DNA of 64,000 nt, from positions 8,478,844 through 8,542,843 of the forward strand of contig CM082588.2 of the NCBI GenBank assembly GCA_040954595.2, read 5' to 3'. This stretch comes from Balanoglossus misakiensis (lineage: Eukaryota > Animalia > Hemichordata). This document shows positions 21,017 to 64,000 of the stretch, piece after piece. A program made the position numbers and the translations under genes. Below the pieces are notes generated by a model. That model did not search any database and was not told the origin of the DNA. It was given only the letters and a program-made list of their open reading frames with translations. Position 1 is the first letter of the stretch; each line of letters starts with the position of its first letter.

Positions 21017-21224
21017 AAAATAGTCCCTGCTGAAAGTTTGTTGAAATGAAGACTTTTCTTTACTTTGAATTCGCGTTTCTATCACGACCAATACTAAAAA
21101 CTGCATTGATACATCGCGGTATTGTTCGTCCTAAACTAGTCACCGGTATTTTCATGAGTACATATGCAAATGAAAACAACATGGAACTACTTTCTACTTG
21201 TAAACATTGGACGCCATGATTGCT

Positions 21225-27792: not shown

Positions 27793-29769
27793 CTGTAAGA
27801 ACTACAGTACATAGAAAGGCATATGTTACAGTGTCATGTGAAAACACAGGAGCTTGTACAGATGCTTTGTTGATATTTTATTGATTGTAACTAAGGTAGC
27901 TAAAACGATAAGATCTCCCGATTTCACGTCATTGGAGCGCTCACGCTATGTTCGGGCCTATACCCCACTGACACATAAACACATAAAGAAATCTCCTTAT
28001 GTGTCAGTGGGTTATAGGCTCGAACTTGTCATATGACGCGAAATCGGGAGATTGTCTAAGCTACTGAGTTATCATTTATAGCCACCTTCCAATTAATAAA
28101 ATACCTGTATGTGAAAACATCAGACGCATGATTGGAATGAAATAAGAAGATGTGATTGATGAAGAAAACTCTAATGATTGACAAATTTTTAAATATTACA
28201 CTTTAAATGATGCAAAAAGTGGATATTCAGCATGTTGCTTTTTAGGGTTTCGAGACCAGAGGGGTCTCGAAACCCTCTTGAAATCGTGTTGTTTTTACGG
28301 GCCCAAGCCAAGCCAGGCTTGGGCCCGTATTGGTTTCGTTGGGGTTTTTCTTTCTTTCTTTATTCTTGGTTCATTTCTTTCGCGCTCTAGATCTCAGAAA
28401 CCGCTGCAGGTACAGTTCTCAAACTTGCTACAGTGGTCAAGGTCAATGAGTAGATGTGCAGTGACTTGTGAATACTTAATTAGTCACGTGACATGGCGGC
28501 CATATTGGATTTTCTGAAAAAATGCAAATCTCAGATCTCAGAAACTACAAGTCAGATCAACTTCAGATTTGTTGTGCTGGTAGTATACCCTCTGCCCATC
28601 ATTTTTGTAATTGGATATTTTGCTGTCAATGTTGCAGTTTTTTTGCTACAGTTGTTTTTCTGAAATCTGGTCAAAATTTCAAAAATCTTCTTCTCCAGAA
28701 CCGGCGATAACCGAGTCACGCCGTTTGGGGTATGTGGTCACCTAACTGATGTCTATCAAGTTTGCGAAGATCATTGTGATTGGTCGAAGATTATGGCGGC
28801 CATATTGGATTTTCGAAAAACCGTAGTAAAACTTCAAAAATCTTCTTCTCCAGAACGGGCGATGACTGAGTCACAAGATTTGGTGTGTGTGGTCATTAAA
28901 CAGATGTCTATCAAGTTTGCGAAGGGGAATGTGATTGGTCGAAGATTATGGCGGCCATATTGGATTTTGTGAAAAACGATTAAAAAGTAAAAATTCCTTT
29001 TCTAGCCTAAACATTGATAGCACAGAAATTATTTTTATGGATATGAATCATCATATGACTACAATGTGCTATAAATATTTTGGTAATTTTGGCAATGACC
29101 TTTGACCTACTTTTGACGCATCATTTTTCTGCATATCTTATTCCAGGCTAACCAATCGGGCTATAAGTTTGGTTTTTGATTTATGTGGATTAGTGTGTGA
29201 TCAAAATATTTTGCTACTTTTCACGACCCCTTTGACCCCTGCTGACCTCATTAATTATGTGCATAGCTAATTACAGGCGAACCAATAGACCTAGAGGTTT
29301 TGTTTTTGTTGGACAGGACCAGTATGGGGTCAAATGTTTTTACCCAGATGTTGGGTGACCTCTGGTGACCTTTGACATACTTTCGCAAATCTCAGCATCC
29401 ACAGCAGATACAGCCTTGGCGTTTGGAGGTATGGGGCCATAATGAAAAGCCAAAGTTTTGGGTCACCTGTGACACCTGCTTAACTCATTATTTATGTGCA
29501 TACCTAATTCCGGGCTAACCAAAAGGGCTAGAGGTCTGGTTTTTGTTGGACATGGACCACTATGGGTCAAAATTTTCTGCCCAAATTGTGGGTGACCTCT
29601 GGGTGACCTTTGACCTACTTAACACTATATCAGCACTAAACATAGATATAATATTGATATTTCATGGGATAAAACATAACATTATGTTTCTACTCATTAA
29701 TTATGTGCAGATCTAATAATCAGATCAGATAATTGAGCTTGGGCCCGGACAATGCTGCTTGCAGCTTTA

Positions 29770-29800
<31 letters not shown>

Positions 29801-32800: not shown

Positions 32801-35800
32801 TTTTCGTTTGCTGAAGTTCATCGATAGTCTGACGTAACTGTCGGATGCTGTCCTTTAGTTTGATGTTTTCATCCACGGTCGTACGTAACTCTTGATTTTC
32901 CTCTTTCACTTTGATATTTATCATGGTTAGCTTAGAACTTTGGTTTTCACTGCTCTTCAGCATTTCCTTCAGACGCTGACATGTCTGCTCACTTTCTTCA
33001 CTTTTCCCTTTAAGGATAGTATATTCCGTCTTCCTGGATTGTAGTAGTTCTCGAATCTCCTTGTTTTCGTTAAAAAGCGAGGTGATGACAGAGAGATAGT
33101 TGTCTGTCGAGATTGGTTCCAAGACACGAGCAGCTCCTTCTTTTGAAAAAGATTCCGCCAGAATCTTGTCCGATTCTTTGGTGCCAGTGTTCAAGATGTT
33201 GACGCCATTTTGATTGACCAATCTCTTCATTTCTGATGAGAATGTGATTCAACATTGTTATCAAAATGTTATTTATTCTCGACATGCAAATCAATGGGAG
33301 AATAGTGCAAACCTGTCTCTAAGATCATAATTCCACACGCAAGCAGATTACCCCAAACAATCCATCTAGAACAATTATCAGCAGTAAGCTTACTTAATTT
33401 AAAACTATTATGTTGGCAATTTGTGGGCCTATTTCAGTGAGTAAAATGTCGTAGATCATTTTTTGAACGAAAGGTGAACATTCTAAATGTAGCTATCAAC
33501 TACATGTATGTAGTGAACACGACTTTATTAGAGCTCTGCAAATGCATAGGTAATCAAGGAGTCCATGAGTCTTCATCGTCAACATGTGTGTTCATTTGTC
33601 CAATACAATATTGTTTGGCCAAATTCCCTGCACTACGAGTTTTATGTTGACTTTAAAGGAATGTTTGTGAACACTGACCTTCTCTATCAAATCTGGATGT
33701 CTCTCCTTCTGGTAAGGTGATCGAAGACAACTGTTGACTATCCAAAATCAAACACCGTCTGATTCCAAGGACACCAAGAACTTCTGGCCGTTCATCCAAC
33801 AACGAAGACAGCTGTAGAGGGCGCTGTATTTTTATCAACAGTACGATTGGTGTCTGTGTGTCTCCCACATCAACATCTATCTCAGCTTCCAAAGTGCCGG
33901 AACCACCAAGTAGTTTTGATAAACCGATTCTGTTTTGGCGTGTGGCATAGACAGACCTGTCAGTCTCCACGGCAACAACTGCGCTCTTGTCATCTACATT
34001 CACAAACGACCCAGAGAAAGGCTCAATAAATGATATGCATTCTGAGTTCATAAAAGAGTATTTTTCAACAGTATTTTTTCTTCTGGTTGAATTCTTAAGT
34101 GCTAATGAAAAAATCTTTTAACTCATAGACCGTACGTCAGTTAGAAACAAAAGCAGTCATAGAAACACTCAACTTGAAAAATAAGTCTTGCCAAATGCTG
34201 TCATCTATAAATAGCAATTACCTTGTTTAGTCAAAATCTTTCCAGGTTCTGTACACTTTTCTCCACACAAACCACAGACCTCAGAAGATTTCACTTCCGG
34301 TACATAGCCTATAATGATTAAAGTTACGAATTCGTCATGACATATATCGTTGATATCAATTTGCAATTTTAACATTTATCCATACCGTGGGCGTACAAGT
34401 GAAATAGTTTGACAAGGTGTCAGTTAGTGCAATTGCATTCACGTGAAATTCACATGAAATCACTTTGAAATGGGTATGAATACAAGAACTTGAAAGTACA
34501 CGTATTCTGTAAAAAACACAACACAGACACGAGTCTGGAATTGAAAATAACAAAATGTTTCAGGTAAACTCCTTTAATTCAAACAAATACACAACGTTTG
34601 GCAACATTAACTAAATTCTTAAACTATTAGACTTGCCTTCCTTGATGTACTTCAATTCTGCCAGACATCGTTGATATCTCCATGTCTCTATGGTTGTCTT
34701 CAGATTAACGTCAGATACATTGAGTTTGTGGAGCAATTCGGGTGTGATCATGTCTGCCTTAAACAGATCTCCCAGGATCCCTTGCCTGTAGTCACGCCAT
34801 AGTCTCTCCACTGACTTTGATGTCTGGCAAGTCAATACAACATGCAGACTGCCCCGCTTGATTTCTTCAATTTGTATGTTTCCAACACTGTTGAGATGGT
34901 CTTTGACTTTTGGTAAGTCGTTTTCAGAGTTGCTGTTGTTGACTATCTCATTTTCGATGTGTTCAACCTGGTCTGGAGTCAAGGTTGGGCCGGATACCTC
35001 CAGGCTAATCTCGATTTTACCTAAAATAACATCACTATATTAGATTGAATGTTTCGGTCTCTTTTCCAAAGTTACTAATTCAGAGTTACTTTTTCGAAAT
35101 GAAGGTACACAATATGCACAACGTCTGTTTATACAGCTTTAAAACTTCAATTATATCAACTTTAATAACCCCTATCTATTTCATCTTCTGAAACAATAAT
35201 CTCCATCCCCATGATAGTCAGGAATGCGAAGGTCTTCAGTTATAGAGGGGAACTATTTGATTTCTTGGAAGGGAGTGGAGTATGTCACCAGGTTTTTCAG
35301 TCACTGTAGGCCTACAGCAGTTTTTTTGATTGTCTGTCTAACTTTTACTTCAAGGCAAGCCAGAAGCAAGTACATTTCCTCATCATCATCTACCAACAAT
35401 TCTTCCTCCAAAAAAACCTATCGTACCCTAGAAATCAAATGGTTCTCCCCTTATTTGATTAGTTGAAATGGCAGTCAATTATGCAACAGGATCTAGCCTA
35501 CCCAGCTTAGATTTGAAAGTGTTTTCATGCGTTTGTCCAGCACCAGGATTTTGTTGGCCACCTTCACCAGTTTTATTCAAATCACCACTTTCTGGTCTAT
35601 TGTTACTGGGGAGATCTTCAACCTGATTTTCTTTTTCGCTTCTACCGGAATTGGAGACTCGTTGTCCTTGGTCACGAACTGTTTCCTCTTCCCCTAGGGA
35701 CAGGTGTGAAAAACTCAATTTACTATCACATTCACACTAATTGCACAAATGCTTCACATTTAAATTGATTCTGGTAAAACATTCAATTGCTTTTGTGTAT

Positions 35801-37216
35801 TAAAATGCATTTTATGCACCGGTAAATCACTGAGCGGCAAACATGTGGCTGTATAATATGTTAATATATTGTCATATTGTCATACCTGTGTGTTGTCCAA
35901 AGCAACATATACAGTGCGTGCAACATTCTCTCTATCTATCGCTATTTACCTTTGGAAGGCTCTTCTGCAGGGTCATCGCATTCTGTAGGGCAAAATACAC
36001 ATTCCAACAGCTTGGTGTGATGGTCAGCAATAACACCACTCTCAGCGGATATTTGTAGTGCCGTCTTCAGTTCTTGTGCCGCATTCTTTGCACGGCCATA
36101 TTCACTTAGGATATCCATGATAGCGCATACCCACTTTTCTTTTCCGCTGTCAAGACTTTCGCTCGGTCCCACGTCACAAGTTTGTACACCAATGGAGGGG
36201 AAGTGTTCCTTTAGGAATGTTGCCAGACCTGATTGCTCTGGATGTATTGTAGGCACACCAGCAGTGCAGGATAGAAGACCGAATACGCCAAATGGGTCGC
36301 CTTTAGTTGTGCAATTTATCACGATGTCACACTGCTTCAAATCGTTCTTTAACTGGCTTATCGATGCGTTGTTGGGATACATGTGGATATTTAATCGATC
36401 GGACATTGTCATCCTCTCTAGCCTCTGTTGACATTCCTCACACGGTTCAGAGGATACATATCCTCTTAACTTCCACTTGATTTGCGTAGAGAAATACTTG
36501 TATATGTCAGCAACTTTCCCGATGCCACGCGCTACTGCTTCAAATTCTTCCAGGTCACGCAGCCCTGTTACGGTATGTACAGATAGGACATTGATGGTTT
36601 TACGTAAACCGGTTTTATTCACGGAAAGATCGCCGACGTCTTCCTTCATGCAGGGAATGTATGCAACGTGCTCCACTTGTGAGTTTAGCAAAGGTTCAAT
36701 CTTCACTTCAAACTCCTCATATACTGATGGTCCAACGGAGAGACTAACAGAGCACTTTTTTGCATATTCCAGCATTTCATCATCTTTGGCAGCCAAGTCT
36801 GAAGGATCTAGATTCATGTTTTCGGGTGTGTCAGAATAAACAGGAACAAAACTCGCAGTTGGAAAAACCTCTGCTTGAATACTCTTTGCTGTACCTGCAG
36901 TTCCATCCTTACAAGCAGTACCGTATATGGTCGTAATTGGGTGATATTTCTTTAACTGTTGAAAATAGTGTTCGTGTAAAATTAACCAATCACTTGTCGG
37001 CTTCCCCTCTTTGGTTGGGAGAATCAGCTCTACTCTATGACACCTTGCTTCTTCAACTTCTTTGTCAGAAGCCTGTAACGCCATGAAGTAAACCTGGTTG
37101 TTTCCATCAGCAAGATCGATGGCCAATTGTCTCTCAGTAAGACACGTTGCAATATTGCGACTTCTCGGCCACCACTCCTCTCCGACAACCAACATACGGT
37201 TCATCATCTGTGCCAT
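26587..37216 (-). CDS. G3: GT4-like / TRADD-N-like / CxxC / X / coiled coil / IFIT-like TPR protein (about 1346 aa)
   Basis: Exons 37216-35950, 35693-35502, 35020-34637 (GC donor), 34308-34222, 33993-33679, 33232-32765, 32205-32084, 27792-26587 (stop). The sum is 4041 nt and the frame is continuous. Confidence 0.85.
28242..31936. mobile_element. Helentron/DINE-like element containing a nested second element (about 28295-29770)
   Basis: The empty site in G2 is gttgctttttatatttcaa (about 13050). Outer element: hairpin agggtttcgagacc...ggtctcgaaaccct and subterminal gtctcgaaaccc near 31900. Inner element: hairpin gggcccaagcc...ggcttgggccc and subterminal gcttgggccc near 29737, related to 1959-3123. 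Both sit in T runs without a TSD. Confidence 0.75.
30410..31800. repeat. Tandem array of about six ~237-bp units inside the element
   Basis: ggaccaaaataagaagccaaattt recurs at about 30411, 30648, 30886, 31122, 31359 and 31596. Confidence 0.9.
32765..33232 (-). CDS. G3 exon: coiled coil (156 codons)
   Basis: Paralogous exon with conserved splice sites. Confidence 0.8.
33679..33993 (-). CDS. G3 exon: domain X
   Basis: 315-nt paralogous exon. Confidence 0.8.
34637..35020 (-). CDS. G3 exon: TRADD-N-like domain
   Basis: Near-identical to 3499-3882. Confidence 0.65.
35950..37216 (-). CDS. G3 exon: GT4-like domain
   Basis: Near-identical to the G1 GT exon; same 1267-nt length. Confidence 0.75.
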
Positions 37217-41889: not shown

Positions 41890-42930
41890 AATTGAGCTGT
41901 AGAACTGCAGATGTCAGCGCCAAAACGCTTCAGTATTAATCCTAAAGTCAAATAAACCTTGGATAACTACAGGTATCAAAAGGTCAATTAAACGAAAGCA
42001 TAAATTCTCTAGGGTCTTAAAAAGTTATTATAACCCTGTGGTCCTAGCAAAATATAAAATTCATCGTACCGTAATATTCTTACAAATGTCCTGAAGATAG
42101 CTAAACATAATTATTATTCTGAACAGTTTGAAAACCACTGTGGAAATATTAATAAAACTTGGGAAGTTGTCAATGACATTTTAGGCAAGGGGAAAAAGAA
42201 AATGGCTTTGCCCAATAATTTGGAAATTTATTCCCAAGATTCTGGTGCCACCATTAATGTGACAGACCAGCATTCCATAATTGATGAGTTCAATAAATAT
42301 TTCATATCAGTTGGGGAAAAGTTAGCACAAGATATCAGCTATACTGGAAACCATAACAAGTACTTATCTAACACTCTACCAAATTCTCTTTTTCTTCGTG
42401 GTGTAACTAATGAGGTTTTAGATATTTTAAAAGTTTTAGAAGTTTTACATATTTTAAATAGTTTGGATAAAAATAAAGCTGTTGGGATTGATCAAATTAG
42501 CCCAAAACTTATTCTCTATGCTATAGATTACATCTCAAGACCACTGACATACTTAATTAATTTAACACTTTCCACTGGAGTCTTCCCAGATGAGCTGAAA
42601 ATTGCAAAGGTAACTCCAGTCTATAAAAAAGGAGAAATGTCTGACCCAAGAAATTATAGACCAGTCTCTGTGTTGCCACAGTTTAGTAAAGATTTTGAAA
42701 AAAATAATTAACAGACAATTAGGATGTTATTAAAATAATTTTGATTTATTGTACCGTTATTAGTATGGGTTTCGAGAGAAGTATAGCACAAAACTTGCTA
42801 TTGTTGATCTAGTCCAAAAAATATCCGAAGAAATCGACTCTGGGAACACTGTTATTGGGATTTCCCTAGATTTAAAAATAGCCTTTGATAAAGTAAACCA
42901 TGAAATTTTAATCAGTAAATTAACATACAT
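41890..42930 (+). mobile_element. Degenerate LINE reverse transcriptase fragment (CR1/L2-like)
   Basis: KAVGIDQIS, TGVFPDELKIAKVTPVYKKG, NYRPVSVLP and LDLKIAFDKVNH motifs, with stops and frameshifts. Confidence 0.9.
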
Positions 42931-44038
42931 ATATTCTGCAATTGTATTATTTATGGGGGACTGGACTCGACTAGTGTTACACTATTTTCTAATCCCCTCC
43001 CATCTTATACCTATTGTATTCTTCATTCCTTTGTTAATTTGTATCAGAATAAGGGAAATTAACTTATTATTATTACATTGTATTATTATTACAGGCTTGT
43101 GTGGCATCGAGGGCGTAGTATACGACTAGAAATTAGGTGTACTCGCTACAACAGGGCCAACAACAACAGTGGTCTGAGAACAAGTGTGATGAATTTGAAC
43201 ACAAATTTCAACTACTTTCAGAACTCATAATGATTCCAATCAAGTCTGTGAATTTAACTGAACAATCCAAAATACTAAAATTGATACTATTTGCCTTCTA
43301 TAGCAAGTCTGTTTTTCCTTTCCCTAATTTCCTACAAGGAAATAACTTCTAAAATGGCCACTAAAAGTGACCTCAGATGACCCCTGCACAGTCACGGAGA
43401 TCAAATAAGTAGAATCACTGTTTGAATTATTATTTTGCAGCAAATCTGTTCAACAAGTCATGGTTCAAATGATTCTTTGTGCACTTATCGTTCATGTATG
43501 TCTAGAATTACAGCAGATTGCAGAAAGAAAAAAAAAACACTTCTTTCATTTGAGAAAAAAATGGTCGGAATCCTACCTGTCGTGAGTATCTCCACCTGTT
43601 GCAGTCTGTAAAACATTTACTGGATGTGATGCCCTCTACGGTAGCTTCTTGCGTTTATGTGGGTCAGGGTTATTTGGTCCCTGGGACTTGATGTGGGTCC
43701 AATCGAAGCACTCCACTCCTCATTTTAAAGAACTAATAAAATGACTTTTGGGTGAATTACCTGCTGGGACAAGTGGCACTGGGGGAGGCATGTGCTTAAA
43801 TATTCATTTCTATATTTTCTTCAATGTATTCTATAGTCAGTTTTCATTTCCCCTCAGCAGTAAAAGATAGAGTAAAAGCACAACTTTAAAACTGAACTGC
43901 AGTTGAAAGTTTTTTTTTATTAATTTGAATATAACTAAATGAATTAAACATCATACAACTTGAAAATGAGATTTGTACAATACCATCGACTTAGTAGCAT
44001 TATAAAACAATTTTATAGTGGCATCTCATTATTCATAA

Positions 44039-45059: not shown

Positions 45060-45391
45060 CTATCTCTGAAAATGGCCTTTTTTCCCACGGCGTTTTTCTG
45101 ATTGCAGTTCGTTTTCACACTCCTTCACCAATGAGACTAATGCGGGTAGTTCCATTTCTTGAAACAAATCCTTCAGAAGTGTTAAATCGTCATTGCTGAT
45201 ATGACCCTTCTCTTTTAAACGGTAAAATATTTCTGACGGAGATTCCAAATCCTGCAATTCTCGTTTTGGTATGAATTCTTCTCGTAACAGGCCTCTGAGA
45301 TCACGCTCATCACTTTTGTTTAAACGCTTCTCAAGTTTCATGAAAAGGATCTTCAGTGGATTTAATTTTGTTGTTTTAAAACACTCTGAAT
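45060..45391 (-). CDS. G4 terminal exon: death effector domain (DED)
   Basis: [77 protein letters not shown] follows the six-helix DED pattern of FADD/caspase-8. Confidence 0.8.
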
Positions 45392-48300
45392 CTGTAATGA
45401 TAATGTTAGTGTTAATGTTATATCATACAAAGGTAAACATAACAAGCAAATTACAGATTTTTCTCAAATCTGATCTAATAGACCATTTTGATATTCTGAC
45501 ATATATAGCTTGTATGATCTTTTTCCAGAGGAGATTAAACCACATAAAAGTAGGTTTTAAATTTCATGATTTAAATTACAGTTAGTTTCATCCACATTTC
45601 AGTGACCATTAATCGTTTATCCTCATTGATCTGCAAAACTGTGAAACTGTCAAACCACAATTTGGAGTTGACACATGTACATATTATAGTAGCATAACAT
45701 CATGATTCTTACCTCCATTTGAAGAACTGCTACCAAATTCCTTCTCCTACATGAGAAAAAGAGACACCAAAGTCATAAATAACAGTAAAAGGGAAAATAA
45801 TGCAAAATGTTTCAATTTTCTAAAAATATTGTGCTTGAAAACTTTGGGGTTCTCATTACAGTGATTCTCCATGTCTGCCAAAACTGGCAAATTACCCAGC
45901 CAAGTTGTTGACTAATGAGACTTTCAGTAGTTACCTAAACACATTCAATTCCAGATAAAATGCAAGACACTGGATCTCCATGGGCAGGCAATGTACAGAT
46001 GGGCACTGATAAAGCTAGGCAATCATGGGTAAATAAATTGTGACAGGGGGGAAGGGTGGGCACCAAGTGATTACAATGTATAAACATCACCTGGGCAATT
46101 GGCCACTGTACTAAGCCAACGACGGGGACACTGCACATACTCATGATCCACATAAGATACATTGAAATGTGATAAATTGAACCCAAAACCTAAATTGAAA
46201 ATTCTAGCACCAGTAATGACTTGTAAGAATCAGATTGCATGCTTTCTCTGCACTCACATCATATAGCACGGACATCTCTTTGTGGTACAACAATGTCATT
46301 TCAATTATTCACAAGCTTATACGTTTAGGTGGGTTCTTACATTTGGCATTGCGAATAAGACCTCAGCAATTAGTTGGTCATCATTTTTGTGAAACAGCAT
46401 ACGCCCATCCAGACCGCTATCTCTTTGCCTGGCTTTAACGACAACAGGCCAGTAGTTATCACAAAATGGGTAGTATGTTCTCTGGTTCATCTCCGTCACC
46501 AGATCAAAATTCCCTACTGCGGGGACAGTATTTTTGACAACATCTCCGTATTTCAGCTCAATATCAGAACTGTGTGTTGTTCTTTTATCAGTGTATTGTT
46601 TATATTTCTCTTCAGTTTGTAATAAATCTGCAATGGATTTTTGTCCTTTGGCCTCCACCAAGTCACATCTTAAGACTGTTGCTGTATCCTTGTGCTGAAG
46701 AAGAAGAATCTTTACAATCTGATTTCCAGACTTCTTGAAGTCTGTGATGGTTGATAGCATGTAACAAATTCGTGGCATGACTTCTTTGATGTATCTTCCC
46801 AACGAATATCTGAAAACAATTCCAGACACTTTCAAGGAATGAAAATGGTGAAATGCAATTAGATGTTAATCATAGATTACGGAAGGGGTGTGTTATATCA
46901 CCATTACCTGTGGATACAATAACATCCAATCAAAGGAATATTTCTTCAGAGCAATATCAACATAACTGCAGTCATTACATTGCATTTGCAAGTCTATGAT
47001 GGTGTATTCTTACAGAAGAAGACTTCAACCTACCCACTCAGTATCTGAGTGTGAAATTCCACCACATCGCGTTGTACAGTATAAGAACAATCCTTGGTAA
47101 CATCCTTCCAGTCACAATTACCATCTTCATCTTTAAGTATGCACAGTTCTGTATCATCAGATGCTACACGTGGGATGTCTGGTGGCAGTGGGATGGTTAG
47201 TTTTATAGGCTTCTTGAACTTCATTCTTTCCCTCTGGCCTCGATTGATATACACTATGGATGCGAAGGATACATCGAGAGATTCTCCACCAGTTGGGAAG
47301 ACACTATCAACTGTGTTATAGCGACAGTCATGGACCTTCAATACAAACAATAAGCCTCATTGAATGTTGTCACTATAGCAGTACATACATGGATACCTGG
47401 CTGAATTATCTCCTGTCTAAGAGTTTAACTGCTTATGGCTGCAATTTGGCACAATCAATCAATCAATCAATCAATCAACTGATGCAGCTCCTTCTTAATC
47501 TATTGTCATGTTAATCTCTATGTGGGGTAATACCAGGTATGGGTAAATGTTGGTGGTTGTGGGGATGATGATGATATTTACCTCTAATATCATAGCCTTT
47601 TCATCTTCTACGGCATCTTCTGGAACTACGATGCTTATCCGTTCGTCTTTTTTTGAGGTAAATTTTCCACCTTCTTTGCTGATATCAAATGTGTCTTTAT
47701 AAGGTCTTGAAATTTCGATGTAAAATGAAAAATGGCAGACTTCTACCTTGATATGATTGTCTTCCTGAATATGAATCAACATTTAATGGTAACACTTTTA
47801 CTTTTTGTGTGTGGTCAGAATCTTCGTGAACAACTTATTAGCACTCCGAAGATTTAAACCAGAGAAGCTACACAAACGTGTAAAAGGCTTGGGTCAGCAG
47901 GTCTCCGCAGCCTTTTCAACTCTTGTGTAACATAAAAAGTCACACCGTCATTTTGGTCGTTGGACAACGGACAAAACATGGCCGGTGTGGTTGGTTATCT
48001 CCACATCGAGGCTCACGTGGAATTTGAATGTTGGTGTAAATCCTTGTATTAAGGCACATCAACAACAAAGCAAATATACTCCAATTGAACAAAACCTAGG
48101 TGGAAAAGTGTTATTTGTTAGAAACAGAAACATTTTCTCAGAGACGGTGTTTTGTTTTGCCAAATGGAAGGTCAGTAGGCTGCAATGACTGACAATTTAC
48201 ATGTCCATGGATACATACATGCACATACTTATACAAATATATATTTACTGAAATGCAATAATGCTCGAGTTATAAGTAGTAAAACTTCACTGTGTAGATC

Positions 48301-51300
48301 TGTGCTGTAGCATACTTACTTTGACAGTTTTCAACTCTTCCCATGTTTCACCATTTTTGCTTGTCAGGATGATCTGTTCTCTCTCAAAAGGCTGAACATT
48401 TAAACACTTCCTCACAAGGTAGACTGGTTTCTTTAGTGTAATGTGATCTGCCTTAATATCAAGGACATCTGACTGATACCATTCAAAGTCTGCAAGAGGG
48501 ACCTTGGTGACGTTGTGGTTACATGTGACCAACAATGTTGTGTCTTGTTCCACACATGCTGGTGGGACCTCGAGTGAAAATCCACATGGTAATTTGTAGG
48601 AACGTCTTTCCTTTAATGGAAAAGGAAAAAATTTCATTACAAAACCAGAAATGGGGCTGGAAATCACCCCCCCCCTCCCCATTGAAGGCTAAAATGTAAC
48701 TAAATTCTGTCATAAAACTCGAATGCATTTGCAAGCAAAAGCGAAGTTCCAGAGACCAGACCTATTTTATATAATATTTCAAGGCCTTCAAAAATGAACA
48801 GTTTGAATAGAAAAAGCAATGCATATATGCTAACCTGTCGGGTGCATGCACTGTTGCAAGCTGGAAATAGTACATATCATAGTTTCACAATTTGTAGATG
48901 TCCATTGAAAATTGTTTTAACCCATCTAGAATACTGTTTAAATACAATTTATCAACATAATCAGTACATGTGGTCTGCATTGCAAACAACCAATTCAGAA
49001 CAAATACAAATTCATAAAAATACACCGATTTTAAGTCAACCATCATGCCTACCTCATTAGCAGCAATAAGCAGAATCGATCTTTGGTCTTGAATATCCTC
49101 TGAAATGCAGATATGTTAGGGTAGTAGTTGTATTTACTAAGATATGATAACTGTTCATGTTTTAACATAAATCCAGCTTGAAATTGTGCATATGAGCCAT
49201 TTCAAGTTTGTGAGACTTGCATGGTTTTTAGGTCCCATCGGTATAGGCATATATACCATATGGGACCTTATAGGATCGGTTGCGTCTGTCTGTCTGTCTG
49301 TCTGTCTGTATGTATGTATGTATGTATGTATGTATGTATGTATGTATGTATGTATGTATGTATGTATGTATGTATGTATGTATGTATGTATGTATGTATG
49401 TATGCATGCATGCATGCATGCATGCATGCATGGATGTATGGATGTATGAATGGATGGATGTATGTCTGTATGTCCGTCCACATCAAAAACTTGAAAACCG
49501 CTGCGTGTATCATCTTGGTATTTGGTGTGCAGATGCAGGCTGGGCTGTATATGGGAGTTTGTTCAAATGAAGTTGTCATTGCCAAAAGTATGCAAATTAG
49601 CTGGAAAAATGTGAATTTGGACAAAACTCAGTAACTCAAGAACTACTGGTCAGATTGCTTTGCAAAGTGGTGTGTATTTACTTGATTGAGTTGTTTTAAT
49701 TAGGCAGGAACCCCCTCCTATGATATATATAAACAGCAAATTCCTGCATGATTACATAACTGGCTAAGTTTTTAAGAGGCCAGCTGTTCTATTTAGTGTA
49801 TGTACAGTACATATGCCATTGGCAGCTTATGGGTCAGTCAGTGATTGCCCATTGATCTCTCGCTATATGTGTGTGTGTCTGTCTGTATATGGCCATGTAC
49901 TCCGGTGTAGACTTTTTCTTGTGTAATCCCTCAAAGGGACCACCGTGTCCTTGAAGCGATTTTTCCCCTTGATATGCACTGGCCTACATATTTCTGCTCT
50001 CATACTACCCTAATTGACTTATTTGTGAATTGATCTGTTAAGGATGCAGAATAAAACATCCACTTTTTGACATAAACATTTCTGTGGTAATTACTGAGTT
50101 CAGAATCCCTTCAAAGTAGATATTTTAGAATGATTTCTTTGTTGAAAATATGAATATGCAGGTTCACCTCACATGAATAGCACAATTATTTTGCAATGAA
50201 CGTAAATTACTGGCAAGAAAAACAAAGTGAAACGGAATATTTTTGATTGACTCCGTACTTAATTTTTGCTCATAGACCCCACCATATACTGTAACAGAAA
50301 AGCACTTTAGTAAGTTCCCAGCCTTCGATGGCCATGTATATTTTCAGAATTGCAGTACAATGTGTCCAATGTGTACAATATAGGCAACACCAATCCGAGT
50401 AAAATCAGATGAGAAGATAGGCGCTGGTGATCGTTTTGGCTGTTCTGAAATTAGAAAAGGTTAAAGGGACAAAGTCTCTCTCTCGCTTCCCCTTTTCCAT
50501 TAATTATGTTTGATACAAGACACTGTGTATGTTATTCTACATGTGGATATATATAGAGAATCAACATTCAATGACACACAACTTCCATCCCGTTTGTACG
50601 ATATGTGAGTAAAAATCTCGCTAAAATGAATAAATGGTAAACACCAATTATTTATTTTGGTGAGTTTATCACTCTCGTGTCTGCAAGTGGGATGGAAATT
50701 GTGTGTGGTCGAATGTTGATTCGCGATATATCCACATGAAGAGTAGCAAACAGTGTCTTGTATCAAACATAATTAATGGAAAAAAGGCAGCGAGAGAGAG
50801 ACTTTGTACCTTTAAGAAGGCGCCTAACTCTAGATCTACATACCTTTGATATTTTTAACTACGGGTAGCGCATTTTCATCTTTTAGTTCGATATTTGTCA
50901 TTCTTAGTTTAGAACTTCGGTTTTCACTGCTTTCCAACATTTCCTTCAGACGCTGACATGTCTGCTCGGTTTCTTCACTTTCCCTCTTAAGGATAGTATA
51001 TTCCATCGTCTTGGATTGTAGTAGTTCTCTAATCTCCTTGATTTCGTTAAAGAGCGAAGTGATGACGGAGAGATAGTTGTCTGTCGAGATTGGTTCCAAA
51101 ACACCAGCAGCTATTTCTTTTGAAAAAGATTCCGCCAGAATCTTGTCCGATTCTTTGGTGCCAGTGTTCAAGATGTTGACGCCATTTTGATTGACAAGTC
51201 TCTTCAGTTCTGATGAAAATAGTTACATGTGATTGAACATTGTTATCAAAATGTTATTCATGCTCGATATGCAAATCAATGGGAGAATATCTGTCTCTAA

Positions 51301-54300
51301 TCTGTCTCTAAGATCATAATTCCACATTCAAGCGGTTTACCCAAAACAATCTCAATTTTCAGCAGTAAGCTTATTTAATTTAAAACTATAATGTTGGCAG
51401 TTTGTGGGCCTATGTCAGAAAGCAAAATATCAATTTTTGAACGAAAGGTAAATATTCTAAATGTAGCCTATACCAACTACACGTATGTAGTGAACATGGC
51501 TTTATTAGAGCTCTGTAAATGCATTGGTAATCAAGGAATCCAGGAGACTACATCGTTAACATGAGCGTATTCATTTGTCGAATAAAGTATTGTTTGGCCA
51601 AATTCCCTGCACTACGAGTTTTCTGTCAAAAAGAATGTTTGTGAACACTAACCTTCTCTATCATATCTGAATGTCTCTCCCTCTGGTAAGGTAATCGAAG
51701 ACAACTGTTGACTATCCAAAATCAAACACCGTCTGATTCCAAGGACACCAAGAACTTCTGGCCGTTCATCCAACAACGAAGACAGCTGTAGAGGGCGCTG
51801 TATTGTTATCAACAGTACGATTGGTGTCTGTGTGTCTCCCACATCAACATCTATCTCAGCTTCCAAAGTGCCGGAACCACCAAGTAGTTTTGATAAACCG
51901 ATTCTGTTTTGGCGTGTGGCATAGACATGTCGATCAACCTCCAAGGCAACCATTGCACCATTGTCATCTGCAGGTACAAAGATTGATAATAGGCAAAACG
52001 AATTGTATGTATTCTCATTAAAATGAGCACATGTTTTACTCAATAGTGCAGGAGTATACTTTTTTTATGGATAAATTTCAAACAAATGAATTATCAGCTA
52101 TAAACATAAGAAACCTTTGGGTGATTTTGGTGTTTCGGTTTATTGAAGCGACATTCCCTTGGGAAAATCAGTTCAAAGTGACGCAAACTAATAATTTAGT
52201 TTTAAAATAAATATGCCGGGCAATGTTAAGTTTAATGATTCTGCAAGAAATGTCAATTGCAGGAAAGAAAAATCGCGTCAAGGACACGGCGGTCCCATTG
52301 AGGGATTACACAAGAAAAAGTCTACACCGGAGTACATGGCCATATACAGACAGACAGACAGACAGACAGACACACACATATAGCGAGAGATCAATGGGCA
52401 AACACTGACTGTCCCATAAGCTGCCAATGGCATATGTACTGTACATACACTTAATAGAACAGCTGGCCTCTTTAAAACTTAGCCAGTTATGTAATCATGC
52501 AGGAAAAATCTGTGTATATAAATCACAGGAGGGGGGTTCCTGTCTAATTAAAACAACTCAATAAAGTAAATTGACACCACTTTGCAAAGCAATCTGACCA
52601 GTAGTTCTTGAGGTTTTGACCAAATTCACATTTTTCCAGCTAATTTGCATATTTTTGGCAATGACAACTTCATTTGAACAAACTCCCATGTACAGCCCAG
52701 CCTGAATCTGCACACCAAATACCAAGGTGATACGCGCAACGGTTTTTAAGTTTTTGATGTGGACGGACATCCATCCATACATCCATCCATCCATCCATCC
52801 ATCCATCCATACATACATACATACATACATACATACATACAGACGCAACCAATCCCATAAGGTCCCATGGTATATATGCCTATACCAATGGGACCTAAAA
52901 ACAAAGTGAAAAGCAAAGTTTTTAGATCGAACTCTAAAATTCGCTTATGCTTCTGGACACAAGAATCGGCCTATAATCGAAGTTGTTAGGAGTACATTTG
53001 TCTCATTTGGAGCAGATGATATAACGGATGCATGGATATGTTGCAGATAACTGCATTACCTTCGATGTTTTTGTCCACATGTGGCGCAATTGTAGTTTTC
53101 GTTTCCTGAAGTTCATCGATAGTCTGACGTAACTGCCGATTTTTGTCCATGGTCGTTTGATTTTCCTCTTTCAGTTTGACATTTATCATGGTTAGTTTCG
53201 AACTTTGGTTTTCACTGCTCTTCAGCATTTCCTTCAGACGCTGACTTGTCTGCTCACTTTCTTCACCAAGAACACGAATTCTTACTTCACTTTCTCTCTT
53301 CAGGAGCGTATATTCCCTCTCCTTTGATTGTAGTATGTCTTGAATCTCCTTGTTTTCGTTAAAGAGCGAAGTGATGACAGAGAGATAGTTGTCTATCGAG
53401 ATCGGTTCCAAGACACGAGCAGCTCCTTCTTTTGAAAAAGATTCCGCCAGAATCTTGTCCGATTCTTTGGTGCCAGTGTTTATGATGTTGACGCCACTTT
53501 GATTGACAAGTCTCTTCAGTTCTGATGAAAATGTGATTTAACATAGTTAGCAAAATGTTATATATACTCGATACGATGTAACCCCCTTTGCAATTGGGTC
53601 GGAGGTCGTGAAATGCAAATAAATGGGCACTATCTATTTTACTTTACGCTTGATGTGCAAATCAATGGCAGAATAGTACAGACCTATCTTTAAAATCAAA
53701 CTTCAACAAGCAGACATTTAGACCAAACCATTCCTTTACTATAATAATTTTAGAACAATTACAGCAGCAAGCTTATTTGTTCTGATTAGTTGAATAGAGT
53801 ATTGTTTGACCAAATTCCCTGCCTAAATGTTTTTTGAACACTGACCTTCTCTATCATATCTGAATGTCTCTCCCTCTTGTAAGGTGATCGAAGACAACTG
53901 TTGGCTATCCAAAATCAAACACCGTCTTATTCCAAGGACACCAAGAACTTCTGGCCGTTCATCCAACAACAAAGACAGCTGTAGAGGGCGCTGTATTTTT
54001 ATCAACAGTACGATTGGTGTATGTGTGTCTCCCACATCAACATCTATCTCAGCTTCCAAAGTGCCGGAACCACCAAGTATTTTTGATAAACCGATTCTGT
54101 TTTGGCGTCTGGCATAGACACGTCGATCAACCTCCAAGGCAACCATTGCACCATTGTCATCTGCAGGTATAACATTGTATAAAGATCTATAATAGGCAAA
54201 ATAAATTGTATGTATTCTCATTAAAATGAGCACATGTTTTACTGCATAGTGCCGGAGTATACTTTTTATGCAAACATTTCAAACAAATGGATTATCAGCT

Positions 54301-57300
54301 AGAAACATAAGAACCAATAGAGGCGTTCAAAATATCACGATGTGTCATGTCATATTCTGTAAGCACTTGCCTGGTTCAATCAGAATATCTTCAAGTTCTG
54401 AACACTTCTCTCCACATATATCACAGATGTCAGTCGATTTTACTTCCGGGTCAAAAACTACAAAGAAATACGTCAACGTCATCAGATGTTTCATTTATTA
54501 CATTTCCTATTTACAAGCCGAACAAGTTTTTTGTGATGCTGAGAAAGTCATTATAGGGCATTTTATATGTGTTTAAAAGAAACATTTTAATGTTCCAGCC
54601 TCACTGAAATTCACAATCTTAGGTTTGGCCCATGTTTAATAAATAAGAGATTACAGCTCAAAATATTAACATTTTTACATATCGTATACAGCTATTTTCC
54701 CAATCACATACATAATCTTCTTGGATTTAGTTTTGAAAGCATACTACAATTTAACTCGTATAATTTCTGGACATAAAAATATTAGAATAGATCGGATAAT
54801 CCGAAAAAAACACCAAAACCATTTGTGTTTGGTCTGGTCTAATTATTGTTGTCACTGCATATGAATATTGCAAATATACTTGTGCCGATATAACATTAAC
54901 ATGTGACTGTATGAGCAAAGGTTGAGTGACAATTATGTTCGCCAGTTAATTTCATGCTTATACATTTTATAAATAGACCAATTACTTCCTTTAAAGCGAA
55001 CACATAAAAATTATGACTGGGTACAGCTATATTTTAGAAAAAATAGATGGTACTCATCTGATAGACACAATCAGAATGATAATCGTGTTTGCCTCCCTCC
55101 ATAGGGCCTGCTATTCATTTCTTATAATAGGCCCCTAACAGACGCTTTTCAACTACATTTACATATACATGTAACATCATATCAGGTCCAGTAACCGTTT
55201 TCATTTTAAGTTGAGTACAAATGATTGCTCTGAAATCAGCTTACCTTCGTTCATGTACTTCAATTCTGCCCGACACCGTCTATATCGCCACACCTCTATG
55301 GTTGTCTTAAGGGGAACATCTGATACGTTTAATCTATGAAGCGTAGATTCTGTGACGATATCAGCCTTGAATAATTCCCCCAATCTCCCTTGTCTGTAGT
55401 CACTCCATAATTTCTCCAACGCCTCTGATGTCTGACATGCCGACACAACACACCCTTGCTTGATTTCATGAATTGTAATTCCACCAACACTGTTCAGATA
55501 CTCTTTCACCTTTGGTAAATCGTCTTCAGATTTGATGCTGTAAATTTCTCTTTCCATGCGTTCAGCCTGATCTGCAGTCAAGTTGGCACCGGAGACGTCA
55601 ATGTGAATCTCGATATCCCCTGAAATATAGTTTATATTTGAAATAATGCAAATACCTTAATTGTTGTCATTGAATTGACTATAGTGTGATTTGTTATGTT
55701 GTTGTCTCAACTTTAATTCCATTTACTATTACGATAGAATCATGGGTGTGTTTAGGTAATGAATATTTTACCTCGAGTTGATCTGAAGGTATGTGTATAA
55801 GTATGTCCTCCACCAGAAGCTTGTCCGTCGTTGTGGTCATCGTTACCATCGCCACTTTCAAACCCGTTGCCCGGTGGAAGATTTTCACCCGGCCCTCCTG
55901 CGCTGTTGCCATTGGTGATCGAACTTCCTTGTTCCTGGCCTTCGATTGTTTTTGGATGGCCGACATCTAGAAAGAGGTAAGAAGAATTGCAAGTATCTAA
56001 ATGACATATGCTGAAGGTGAGTTTACATCTACGTGTGTAACACTTTGTAGCAAAACCTATCAGTGTTATTGAACATTCATTCAGATACCGATTTAAGTTT
56101 TTTATGCAACGTTTCACGTGTAATATACTATCATTTACCTTTTGAGGATTCTTCCCCAGGGTTTTCGCACTCTGCAGGACTAAGTGTAGAAGAATCCAGC
56201 AATTTCTTTTGTTGAACTGCAATGAAACCATTCTCTGCGGATTTATGAAGTGCTTTACTCAATTCTTGGGATGCGTGTTGAGCACGACCATATTTACACA
56301 GGACAGGCATGATGGTATCTAACCATTTTTCACTTTCGCTATCGACATTTTGGCATTGTCCAGTGTCACATGACGGGACAGAGATGGCGGGGAAGTGTTC
56401 ATCTATGAACGATGCAAGGCCTGATTGCTTTGGTTGTATTGTGGGCACACCGGCAGCACAAGACATAAGACCAATCACACCAAATGGATCACCTTTTGTT
56501 GTGAATATTACCACGAGGTCACACTGCATCAGATCTTTCTCTAAGTGGTCCATCGATGCCTTGTTTGGATATAGCTGAATATTCAACATGTGTGACGCGG
56601 CCATCTTCTCCAGTTTCAGCTGAAACTTTTCGCATAGTGTTGATGTTACAAGTCCTCTGAACTTCCACTTTGTGTTGTAATCGGAGTTGTGAAAATAGCG
56701 AGCAACTTTCCCCATGCTACATGCTGCTGCTTCGAATTCCTCCAGATCTTGCAGGCTTGATATTGTGTGTACAGACAGGACTTCTATTGTGTTCCCCAAC
56801 TCTGAATTACTAGCTGGACGCTGACCAACACCCATCTTTGCCAAGGGAATGTACAGCTCATGCGCCACTTCTGAATTCAGAGAAACTTGAATCTTCCTCT
56901 TGTAGTCATGGCATACTGATGGACCAACTGACAAAATGGCGGAAGCCGCATTGATATATTCCATAATTTCACCATCAAGGATTTCCAAATCGGAAGGCTC
57001 CAAGCTCATGTTGTCTATCATATCCGACAAAACTGGGACAAATCTCGGAATCCCAAGATCTTTTTGAATACACCTTGCAACATCGGCAGTTCCGTTCTTG
57101 CAAGCAGTGCCATATATTGTTGTAATCGGGAGACATTTCTTCAACTCGGGGAATCGGTCAAGGTGACAAATTAACCAGTCCCTTTGCGGTTTCTGATTTC
57201 TCTTTACAGTTGGAAGAATCAACTCCACTCCATGTTTGCTCGCGTCCTCCACCTCTTCGTCAGTTGCTTCCAAAACCATGAAGGAGACTTTATTTTCTCT

Positions 57301-57408
57301 GACAGCAAGGTCTATCGCTAGTTGTCTTTCAGTGATACATGTTGCTATGTTACGCCTTCTGGGCCACCATTCTTCTCCAACAACCAATACTCGATTACTG
57401 TGAGACAT
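45060..57408 (-). CDS. G4: GT4-like / TRADD-N-like / CxxC / (X-coiled coil)x2 / ZU5-ZU5-UPA / death effector domain protein (about 1680 aa)
   Basis: Exons 57408-56139, 55966-55772, 55619-55245, 54457-54371 (GC donor), 54160-53846, 53521-53060, 51967-51653, 51209-50844, 49099-49053, 48610-48320, 47764-47582, 47335-47034, 46809-46341, 45746-45713, 45391-45060 (stop). The sum is 5043 nt and the phases match at every junction. Confidence 0.8.
46341..48610 (-). CDS. G4 exons: PIDD1/DTHD1-like ZU5-ZU5-UPA module
   Basis: [16 protein letters not shown]; [15 protein letters not shown]...EGGKFTS...[10 protein letters not shown] (compare PIDD1 VPHFSWFLVVSRP...EG...VKVIFPPGA); [13 protein letters not shown]; WKDVT; followed by a beta-rich UPA-like exon. 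Confidence 0.75.
49225..49965. mobile_element. Hairpin-ended non-autonomous element with (TCTG)n(TATG)n microsatellite
   Basis: Starts tttttaggtcccat...atgggacct (hairpin); microsatellite at 49285-49470; inverted copy at 52267-52901. Confidence 0.7.
50465..50811. mobile_element. MITE with TTAA TSD and AG...CT termini (Kolobok-like)
   Basis: ttaa|agggacaaagtctctctctcgc ... gcgagagagagactttgtacct|ttaa, with long imperfect TIRs. Confidence 0.8.
50844..51209 (-). CDS. G4 exon: second coiled coil (122 codons)
   Basis: Paralogous acceptor; donor G|gtatgt. Confidence 0.75.
51653..51967 (-). CDS. G4 exon: second domain X
   Basis: 315-nt paralogous exon. Confidence 0.8.
52267..52901. mobile_element. 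Inverted copy of the 49225-49965 element
   Basis: Reverse-complement similarity over about 630 bp; absent from the equivalent G1 intron (about 535). Confidence 0.75.
53060..53521 (-). CDS. G4 exon: first coiled coil (154 codons)
   Basis: Paralogous exon. Confidence 0.8.
53846..54160 (-). CDS. G4 exon: first domain X
   Basis: 315-nt paralogous exon. Confidence 0.8.
55245..55619 (-). CDS. G4 exon: TRADD-N-like domain (divergent)
   Basis: [35 protein letters not shown]...[17 protein letters not shown]. Confidence 0.65.
56139..57408 (-). CDS. G4 exon: GT4-like domain (divergent paralog)
   Basis: Acceptor ag|gATG; [28 protein letters not shown] and [18 protein letters not shown]. Confidence 0.75.
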
Positions 57409-61133: not shown

Positions 61134-64000
61134 TTAGTTTTTTTCCTGTTCAGATAACCTTGCTTTGTACTCCTGTGCATACTTGCCCAAGGAATACTCC
61201 TGACCACAGGCTTCTGTTATGTTTGGGTATTTCAGTGCATTGGAAGAGTCATCTTGTGCTTGGTAAACGTGGGCAAGATTATAACATGCCCATAGTATGT
61301 AATATGGGTCAGAGAGGGTGCTGATCAGATGGGTATATATTTCACATGCATCACTGTACTGTTTCAAGTGTGCGAGGGCATGGGCCTTCCACAGAGAAGC
61401 GTCGGGATACAAACCACCTGCATATGCAACTGCTTTGTCGAGACACTCTATGGCTTCTAGCAGGCACTGATGATTGCTTTCTATCGGATTGTGTTGGTAT
61501 TTGGCCGCGTATGTGGCTCCTAGGTTAAACGCGAAATATGGATTGTCTGGATCTTGTGTTGCAGCACTGTGAATAACTCGCAGTGCTTTTTCGAATTCTC
61601 CAACATTGCTGTAGCAGTAATAACAACGTGCAGAATCCACCGCGAAAGGGGATAAAGGGGTTAATTCGATTGCTTTCTGGGTGAGTTGACCTGCTTCTTC
61701 ATAGCGACCTTCAGTGAGTGACAGGTCACTTAAAAGTGCCAAAGCATAGCTGTGATGGGCATTTTCCTTAAGAACTCTCTCAAGCAAATTTCTTTCTTGT
61801 GCCATTATTTGTAAGGCTTCCTTACATTTTGAAATTCCATAGACACGATCACGTTTTTGTAAAAAGACGAGTGCTTGCCAAAACAGCCAATCTGTTTGTT
61901 CTGGAAGTTCTACTAAAGCACGATCAAAGCTATCAAATCCCTCATCACACGTTTTTTTTCAAAATAAGTCAGAAAGATACCCTTGTGAGCATATACATAC
62001 GCTTTCTGTTTCCCTGACAATTTATCAAGTGACAAAGTTGCTATCAACTTTAGCGTTTCATCAACTCTCTCCATCTCACCCGACATGAAATGAACCCATG
62101 CTTTATCTGCAAGAAGAACCAACTTATCACCAAGTGGACCATCGTCGTCACCATCACAGCTGTCAAGTTCTTTCTGGTTGTCGGTGAGGGCGTCATCAAA
62201 CCACTTCAAAGCGGCACTTGGATCTCTCTCGTCTTCTGATCTCAGTTTGGACATGTACAGGTAACCTTTCATAGCTTTATGGGGAACTGGAGAGAACTCC
62301 TGGTTGTGATATTTAAGTCTGTTGTCCAAATAACACTGTAAGACCTACAGTACATGGAAAGGCATACTATATTGTCACGTGCAAACCTCAGGTCTCAGGC
62401 TCATTAACTCACATAATGTAAGAGCTTCAACTGACACAAACATTCAACAAATAAATTTTACACTTTAAATGATGCGAGAATTAGGTATTCAGGATGTTTC
62501 TTATTACGTTTCAATTAACTTTAGGGGATAAATTACTATCATCAATGGAATAAGTTGTTAAACATTTTCTTAATTTTATGATATTCAAACCAATCACAGA
62601 CAGATGTAATGAAACGCTAAACAGAAAAACATAAATAAATGTCCTCACCTCAAAACTCTCGTCACAAAATTCTTCGAGTTTCCAGGTAAAATGGCAGGGA
62701 AACCTCTGCAGTAATTCTTCATAGGACTTTGCTGTATGCTTCAATCCCGTTATGTGTGTAACTGAAAATTCTATTGAACAGTAAAAACAATTTGGGTTAT
62801 AAACTGATTTCACAATTTTAATTTTAAATTGAGATTGGTCTATTGGTCTTTTTGGTATTCCAACATTTTGGGAGAGAGTTGAGTTGTATCAACCAGTGAA
62901 TGAAATATTAATAAGCGCAACAACGTAAATATCTATCAAAAGAAACTAAAACAACTAAAATAACGTCAATAATGAGTGATTTTATTCATTCAGTTTATTG
63001 AAGCAATATTCCCTTGGGAAAATCAGTTGAAAACTAATAATTGAGTTTTAAAATAAATATTCCGGACCATGTTAAAGGTATACGGCCACCTATGGTTATC
63101 ATGCATGGCAAATTGTGATCTAACCAATCACAGATTTTCAGTGGGTGGCACATGCGAAAAAAGAGCGCCGCCTTATGTTCTTTAGAACGATCAAATACCC
63201 CATTTCAGCCATATATGGGCAATTGTGTAAATTGGACGTGACTGTATACCTTTAAGTATAATCATTTTGCAAAGATTGTCAATTGCAGGAAAGAAAGGGA
63301 AGATTTTGAGACTGAACTCTTAAATTTGCTTTTGCTCCTAGACCCAAGAAATCTGTGATAGACAATAAATTTGGCCTTTCAGGGTCATGCATACTTTCAT
63401 AATCGAAGTTGTTAGGAGCATATTCTTTTTTTTTCAGTAGGAGCAGATGATATAACTGATGCATGGATATGTTGCACATAACTGCATTACCTTCGATGTT
63501 TTTGTCTACAGGTGGCGCAGTTGCAGTTTTCGTTTCCTGAAGTTCGTCGATAGTCTGAAGTAACTGCCGATTTTTGTCCATGGTCGTTTGATTTTCCTCT
63601 TTCAGTTTGATATTTATCATGGTTAGTTTCGAACTTTGGTTTTCACTGCTCTTCAGCATTTCCTTCAGACGCTGACTTGTCTGCTCACTTTCTTCACCAA
63701 GAACACGAATTCTTCCTTCACTTTCTCTCTTAAGGAGCGTATATTCCCTCTCCTTGGATTGTAGTATGTCTTGAATCTTCTTGTTTTCGTTAAAGAGCGA
63801 AGTGATGACAGAGAGATAGTTGTCTGTTGAGATTGGTTCCAAAACACGAGCAGCTCCTTCTTTTGAAAAAGATTCCGCCAGAATCTTGTCCGATTCTTTG
63901 GTGCCAGTGTTTAAGATGTTGACGCCACTTTGATTGACAAGTCTCTTCAGTTCTGATGAAAATGTGATTTAACATAGTTAGCAAAATGTTATATAAGATT
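61134..64000 (-). pseudogene. G5 (5' part outside window): coiled coil / IFIT-like TPR gene with a 1-nt frameshift
   Basis: Exons 63952-63491, 62770-62649 (LLQRFPCHFTWKL) and 62335-61134. The last exon is 1202 nt because an A-run at 61952-61959 is one base short. This could be a real lesion or a homopolymer sequencing error. Confidence 0.7.
63076..63251. mobile_element. MITE with TTAA TSD (Kolobok-like)
   Basis: ttaa|aggtatacggccac ... gtgactgtatacct|ttaa; the empty site accatgttaagtataat is present in G2 (about 13662) and G3. Confidence 0.85.

Follow-up and report, generated by a model that had tools for sequence, protein, structure and literature searches.

The window analysed here, 64,000 nucleotides of Balanoglossus misakiensis (Hemichordata; GenBank assembly GCA_040954595.2, contig CM082588.2, positions 8,478,844 to 8,542,843 of the forward strand), is intron-bearing animal DNA and holds a tandem array of genes on its minus strand. 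One of them, G4, appears to join a scaffold of GT4-conflict (glycosyltransferase-like), TRADD-N-like and coiled-coil exons to a ZU5-ZU5-UPA module that ends in a death effector domain (DED). In our reading, the module is likely spliced to the scaffold, the protein likely cuts itself once, at a His-Phe-Ser (HFS) motif at the end of the first ZU5 domain (ZU5-1), and the two pieces are predicted to part only once the scaffold half has been displaced or destroyed. As a whole this reading is tentative and falls a little short of an even chance. All coordinates are those of the window.

The HFS codons occupy 47734-47726 on the minus strand, within the residues VEVCHFSFY of the exon 47764-47582, and the motif is intact at the end of ZU5-1, as the original prediction had it. 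The second site, described there as degenerate (TQILSGY), was confirmed as such; it reads FHTQILSG|Y, with its Gly codon divided by the intron 47033-46810, and its ILS aligns with the xFS site of eight homologues. From the composition of the module, the chance of an HFS is about 1e-4 at one of the two fixed sites and 0.03 anywhere in the module.

The homologues were obtained with the exon at 47034-47335 (exon D), which retrieved 16 proteins among 1.84 billion representatives. The 11 proteins that align with the module were kept, ten from Ptychodera and one from Glandiceps, and P0008, P0009, P0012, P0013 and P0017 (FN3, NHL or secreted-type proteins) were dropped from the alignment and from the counts. 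Ptychodera flava and Glandiceps talaboti, both acorn worms, supplied the proteins closest to G4. The N-terminal heads of the 11 proteins are LRRs, CARD or none. Among longer proteins, word-based searches gave no match of 164 candidates for exon E (46341-46809) and one match of 3537, without ZU5, for the GT4 exon; a profile of six homologues gave three of 5545, all already known and two of them members of the profile.

Site 1 reads HFS in G4, QFS in P0002 and HFC in P0003, and KLS, QLS, RLT, CLS, QLG, SLT, KFQ and KLA in eight others; the record of P0016 is without this part. Site 2 reads ILS in G4, FIS in P0002, SVS in P0003 and SIS in P0016, and xFS in the other eight (8/8). Exactly one Phe-Ser/Cys per protein was found in all 11 sequences, G4 included, in which both sites are visible. 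A tree of the second ZU5 domain (ZU5-2) and UPA, built from G4 and the 11 acorn-worm proteins without PIDD1 or ankyrin and midpoint-rooted for drawing only, placed G4, P0002, P0003 and P0016 on one side of a branch with 100/100 support. The intact motif stands at site 1 in the three visible members of this G4 clade (3/3) and at site 2 in all eight others. This one-site-per-protein pattern argues that G4 likely cuts itself once, at F1224|S1225 of the model. PMC3210808 assigns the role of structural anchor to Phe and that of nucleophile to Ser, Thr or Cys, so it can be argued that the motif has been kept for use.

The ZU5-ZU5-UPA assignment of G4 is supported through its homologues, by sequence and by a predicted structure. 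Pfam matches of single exons to ZU5 were weak (exon B, at 48320-48610, only; E 0.07), and exon D matched ankyrins in five of five matches against the PDB. The six-homologue profile matched ankyrin-B (4d8o) at 1.3e-17, with an alignment that is ordered across both ZU5 domains and weak across UPA and the death fold. The predicted structure of the homologue P0007 matched the same structure at 3e-27, and the G4 module is 43% identical to P0003 over 471 columns. Both sites of P0007 map, in its model, to the beginning of the final strand of the respective ZU5 domain (residues 406-408 on strand 407-416 and residues 554-556 ahead of strand 557-563), so that the first strand of the small piece would belong to the sheet of the large piece.

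The last exon (45391-45060) matched the Pfam DED family PF01335 with E 7e-11 (42.7 bits, cut-off 35.9), and neither the Death nor the CARD family was reported by Pfam at E<=1. The check proposed earlier, DED against death domain (DD) or CARD, was therefore settled for the DED, and a DD or CARD identity of this exon was ruled out. The best five solved-structure matches are all caspase-8 DEDs. The 11 homologues end in a DD (six), a DED (two) or a CARD after the module (one), or are cut short (two). Since two of the 11, P0003 (35.2 bits, just below the cut-off) and P0007 (48.6 bits), end in a DED, this domain on a ZU5-ZU5-UPA module is not unique to G4; nor are DED and site position tied, because the intact site of P0007 is the one at ZU5-2. 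Weak pairwise alignments place Gly-Leu (G-L) of the G4 DED opposite F122-L123 of caspase-8 DED2, and P0003 retains F-L. According to parts of PMC3477315, FADD and caspase-8 recruit the next DED with this FL motif, and F122G/L123G blocks caspase-8 chains. The G-L of G4 would thus lower, without excluding, the chance of direct nucleation.

The G4 model has 14 exons, GT-AG introns throughout (13/13) and an uninterrupted frame of 1651 residues. Its domain order is GT4, linker, TRADD-N-like, domain X, coiled coil, domain X, coiled coil, ZU5-ZU5-UPA and DED, and its scaffold introns are of phase 1 in seven of seven cases. An AG stands directly 5' of the ATG, so an additional 5' exon may exist. Besides that of G4, no other copy of the ZU5-ZU5-UPA-DED module was found in the window. 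The features of the model are as follows.

56139..57408, minus strand: exon 1 from the ATG, GT4-conflict glycosyltransferase-like domain (Pfam, frame)
55772..55966, minus strand: low-complexity linker exon, phase 1-1
55245..55619, minus strand: TRADD-N-like exon, phase 1-1 (PF20694)
53846..54160, minus strand: domain X copy 1, predicted ferredoxin-like fold
53060..53521, minus strand: helical/coiled-coil exon, copy 1
51653..51967, minus strand: domain X copy 2, 93% identical to copy 1
50844..51209, minus strand: coiled-coil exon, copy 2, with a phase-1 donor at its end
49053..49099, minus strand: exon A, phase-1 entry into the module, start of ZU5-1
48320..48610, minus strand: exon B, body of ZU5-1
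47582..47764, minus strand: exon C, end of ZU5-1 and start of ZU5-2
47726..47734, minus strand: His-Phe-Ser motif, predicted self-cut F1224/S1225 of the model
47034..47335, minus strand: exon D, ZU5-2, with the degenerate second site ILS at its end
46341..46809, minus strand: exon E, last strand of ZU5-2 and UPA domain
45713..45746, minus strand: exon F, short linker, predicted by splice signals and frame
45060..45391, minus strand: exon G, death effector domain and stop, FL motif read as G-L

A microsatellite-bearing repeat is present in two inverted copies, 89% identical, at 49396-49965 and 52267-52844, which flank the duplicated X and coiled-coil exons of G4.

According to the preferred reading, splicing would yield a cytoplasmic protein of 1651 residues, in which Ser1225 would attack the Phe1224 bond as in PIDD1 and give a scaffold half of 137 kDa and a C-terminal piece of 427 residues and 49 kDa. 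The latter would comprise the last strand of ZU5-1, ZU5-2, UPA and the DED, and would be the counterpart of PIDD1-C; site 2 would stay uncut, hence no UPA-DED piece of the PIDD1-CC type would be formed. The two pieces would be held together through the shared sheet of ZU5-1, and the cut would be a break point and not the trigger. A pathogen signal would then remove the scaffold half, in which GT4 is probably a non-catalytic binder or bait, and the freed piece could bind host DED proteins. With half of its FL motif lost, the freed DED would more likely join, cap or tune a DED chain than start one.

Parts of PMC9162469 report that PIDD1-N binds PIDD1-C, that NLRP1 fragments remain associated and that in ANK2 the UPA-DD is packed against the first ZU5, and the association of fragments is described for PIDD1, NLRP1 and CARD8 in PMC9162469 and PMC3210808. 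Because related fragments remain bound, and because of the placement of the sites at the last strands, the cut is most plausibly a break point at which a second event has to act. The original prediction, in which G4 cleaves itself once and releases a ZU5-UPA-DED fragment, was thus retained in its first half, as one cut is likely from the family pattern, and its second half became doubtful.

The GT4/TRADD-N scaffold exons are quite likely spliced to the module. The last scaffold donor is of phase 1 and matches the donor of G2 and G3 that leads into IFIT-like exons (in open models), exon A is entered in phase 1 and holds no in-frame ATG, and the first Met of the module is residue 1270, C-terminal of the HFS. 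It is quite improbable that the ZU5-UPA-DED exons form a separate gene or an alternative tail, with the scaffold terminating after the second coiled-coil exon. Such an arrangement would agree with the stand-alone or differently headed modules of Ptychodera (P0002, P0003, P0006, P0007), with the copy of the 570-base repeat and the polyadenylation-like hexamers that lie in the 1.74 kb gap between scaffold and module, and with the single match of the GT4 exon being without ZU5; however, the phases agree, the donor is homologous to those of the sister genes and no Met stands ahead of the HFS. Moreover, a scan of the gap for donors of the GTRAG type, the one type covered, gave a single donor, preceded by four open codons and no Met.

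Three other explanations accept the joined protein and differ on what becomes of it. If the HFS were a relic of a two-site ancestor, G4 would not cut itself and would be a scaffold of the ankyrin or UNC5 kind; its nearest solved folds are indeed ankyrin tandems, and P0002 lacks the His (QFS). Ankyrin tandems (ZU5-ZU5-UPA) and UNC5b are not known to self-cleave. Against such a relic, Phe with Ser or Cys is found at site 1 in 3/3 visible clade members and in 0/8 of the others, which carry theirs at site 2, and the Ser/Cys exchange preserves the nucleophile, so that absence of any cut is unlikely. Cleavage at both sites is highly improbable. It would produce a PIDD1-CC-like UPA-DED piece of 279 residues and 32 kDa, and the Ser of site 2 is retained in 12/12 sequences; according to PMC3210808, Nup98 can largely do without His at position -2 and CARD8 has Ser there, but the same source gives Leu at the corresponding place of UNC5b, and the Phe anchor is gone from site 2 in 4/4 clade members. 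The remaining alternative, in which the ZU5-UPA-DED piece freed by the single cut would act as a direct nucleator of FADD or of a caspase-8-like protease and bring about cell death, is doubtful. DEDs bind DEDs, the DED of G4 is genuine and nearest to those of caspase-8, and P0003, its nearest DED-bearing homologue, retains F-L. On the other hand, fragments of related proteins remain bound, the FL motif of G4 is G-L where F122G/L123G blocks caspase-8 chains (PMC3477315, in part), and caspase-2 in the PIDDosome is activated by PIDD1-CC and not by PIDD1-C, the type to which the G4 piece would belong (passages of PMC7883297). The last two objections also weaken the putative engagement of FADD or caspase-8 that the original prediction assigned to the piece.

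Several observations weigh against the preferred reading, that is, one cut in a spliced protein whose pieces stay bound. The site pattern rests on 12 sequences, probably from one animal class, and would reflect a single switch in evolution, or the differential loss of sites from an ancestor with two, and not eleven events; His at -2 is kept in two of the three clade members. The structural basis is P0007, which is 34% identical to G4 and has a DED part below 60 pLDDT. The alignment of the FL motif is weak and pairwise, and the cited mutant alters both residues where G4 alters one. Finally, the polyadenylation-like hexamers, at 50656 and 49700, lie in the intron 3' of the scaffold, and reading through the last scaffold donor reaches a stop two codons on; a scaffold-only form of G4 is therefore possible.

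The scaffold was compared with Pfam over 11 stretches of G4, with the short exons (linker, exon A and exon F) left out. Exon 1 matched GT4-conflict (PF20706) with E 7e-32, and the TRADD-N-like exon matched PF20694 with E 1.9e-4 and 21.6 bits, below the cut-off of 23.7. No LRR family was found on the 11 scanned stretches. The N-terminus that had been proposed, GT/TRADD-N and not LRR, was thus upheld for GT4 and, on these stretches, for the absence of LRR, and is less firm for TRADD-N. The EX7E motif of GT4 reads D-x7-M in G4, D-x7-L in G1-G3 and E-x7-E in an amphioxus relative; it acts as the donor-binding motif of GT4 enzymes according to part of PMC8760489. The GT4 domain of G4 is likely an inactive or altered enzyme and, as its EX7E reads D-x7-M, would be a binder or bait more than an enzyme.

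Domain X has 104 residues and is present in six copies in the window, one of them cut by the window edge; the five whole copies are 86-93% identical. Its fold was predicted as ferredoxin-like (pLDDT 67), and in Foldseek the model gave ACT/ferredoxin-like matches alone (E ~2e-3). No Pfam family was found for it, matches in the Atlas were all <0.9, and no family name is given here. It is possibly a second TRADD-N-type domain.

A GT4-conflict exon opens four genes of the window, at 6163 (G1), 18191 (G2), 37216 (G3) and 57408 (G4), and a fifth, partial gene (G5) runs in from the right edge. Across the array, a constant core seems to be followed by differing C-terminal modules, IFIT-like tails in G2, G3 and G5 and the ZU5 tail in G4. 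In G2 (11374-18191), G3 (26587-37216) and the partial G5 (61134-63952), all on the minus strand, the GT4/TRADD-N/X/coiled-coil scaffold is probably joined in phase 1 to IFIT-like TPR exons, with which the open models of G2 and G3 end (1308 and 1317 residues). The small first IFIT-like exon matched IFIT1 or IFIT2 in six of six PDB matches, at a weak E of 0.3 to 1.3. The term IFIT is absent from supplementary file 4 of PMC8195603 as listed, in which GT4+TRADD-N+TPRs is present.

Other observations concern single genes. At the first IFIT-like acceptor of G2 (13335-13326), GG stands in place of AG; the model remains open through use of an in-frame AG nine bases further upstream. Immediately downstream of the G2 stop, part of the IFIT-like 3' end is present again as a duplicate (10954-11289). 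The IFIT-like exon of G5 shows a frame shift within an A run at ~61955, which points to either a pseudogene or an error of assembly. In G3, G2 and G1, the TRADD-N exon (34637, 15469 and 3499) has an apparent GC donor, and that of G4 has GT. G1 (1-6163) shares the duplicated X exon of G4, with 94.6% identity between 3-538 and 51734-52272, and its frame stays open as far as the window edge, so it may hold a second ZU5-DED tail past it. A tandem repeat of ~237 bases occupies 29229-31895 in the long intron of G3, with inverted related copies at 2002-2642 in an intron of G1. The broken frames 19901-21078 and 42058-43129 are, by eye, what we take to be LINE endonuclease/reverse-transcriptase remnants.

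A DED output would tie the ZU5-UPA switch straight to the FADD/caspase-8 layer; the outputs of the studied self-cutting ZU5-UPA proteins are DD (PIDD1, UNC5CL) or CARD (NLRP1, CARD8). The acorn-worm family would also provide natural one-site versions of PIDD1, with site 1 only or site 2 only, which lets the purpose of each cut be tested. A bolder proposal is a tripwire in the manner of NLRP1, with a dead GT/TRADD-N scaffold as bait whose destruction would free a pre-cut ZU5-UPA-DED controlling a caspase-8-like protease. In addition, the array would swap IFIT-like RNA-binder and death outputs by phase-1 exon exchange, and the lineage would have moved its self-cut from ZU5-2 to ZU5-1, changing what is released; taken together, this seems to us unlikely, if worth stating.

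The novelty of G4 was at first overrated, as public acorn-worm proteins already include DED-ended modules and the literature already has TRADD-N+ZU5+ZU5+UPA+Death, with autoproteolysis predicted for it. Among the papers listed, none was, by title or abstract, on this ZU5-ZU5-UPA-DED module. In the parts of Kaur et al. 2021 (PMC8195603) that bear on this, GT4 precedes TRADD-N in hemichordates, amphioxus and corals; corals have TRADD-N+ZU5+ZU5+UPA+Death and ZU5+ZU5+GT4, amphioxus has GT4+TRADD-N with TPRs or DEDs, and autoproteolysis is predicted for ZU5-bearing TRADD-N proteins; these parts hold no analysis of cleavage motifs. Among the 96 ZU5 places listed from its supplementary file 4, no row had GT4+TRADD-N followed by ZU5+ZU5+UPA, and the rows listed held no UPA+DED, ZU5+DED or FIIND+DED string. 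Coverage of this source extended to 30 of the 66 places with ZU5 in file 6 and to 23 of the 149 with GTase+TRADDN in file 4, with file 13 left out, and further rows may bear on the comparison. An alignment in PMC3210808 labels one dog FIIND sequence 'ded'. The parts and the general class are known already; what is new is the combination and a testable motif switch, and not a new system.

Compared with PIDD1 (LRR-ZU5-ZU5-UPA-DD, cut at F445|S446 and S588), G4 is alike in the tandem ZU5, the UPA, the terminal death fold and an HFS that closes its first ZU5, and its predicted C-terminal fragment of 49 kDa is close to the 51 kDa given for PIDD1-C in part of PMC9162469. It differs in having no LRR, ILS and not HFS at the second site, and a DED in place of the DD; the likeness is one of features, the tree of G4 being without PIDD1. 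NLRP1 and CARD8 (FIIND, that is ZU5-UPA, with SF|S, and CARD) are also cut just before the last ZU5 strand and carry a death fold behind UPA, and their fragments remain bound. They have, however, one ZU5, a cut directly before UPA and a CARD, whereas the intact site of G4 lies one ZU5 further upstream and its pre-UPA site is ILS. Ankyrin-B (ZU5-ZU5-UPA-DD, 4d8o), the best profile and fold match of the module, differs by its ankyrin repeats and DD.

The Ptychodera flava proteins XP_070536463 (P0003) and XP_070531668 (P0007) share ZU5-ZU5-UPA-DED with G4 and are 43% and 34% identical to its module, respectively. P0003 is annotated from within ZU5-1 and differs from G4 by HFC and an intact F-L, and P0007 by a CARD head and an intact site (SFS) at ZU5-2; both records are without the GT4 scaffold. 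With the DEDD2-clade TRADD-N/GT4 proteins of Kaur et al. 2021, G4 shares GT4-conflict and the variable C-termini, and its GT4 precedes a TRADD-N-like exon that scored below the Pfam cut-off. Overall, G4 has part of its predicted workings in common with PIDD1 without being one, since it lacks the LRR, has a single intact site and ends in a DED; its place is among the variable GT4/TRADD-N immune proteins of marine invertebrates.

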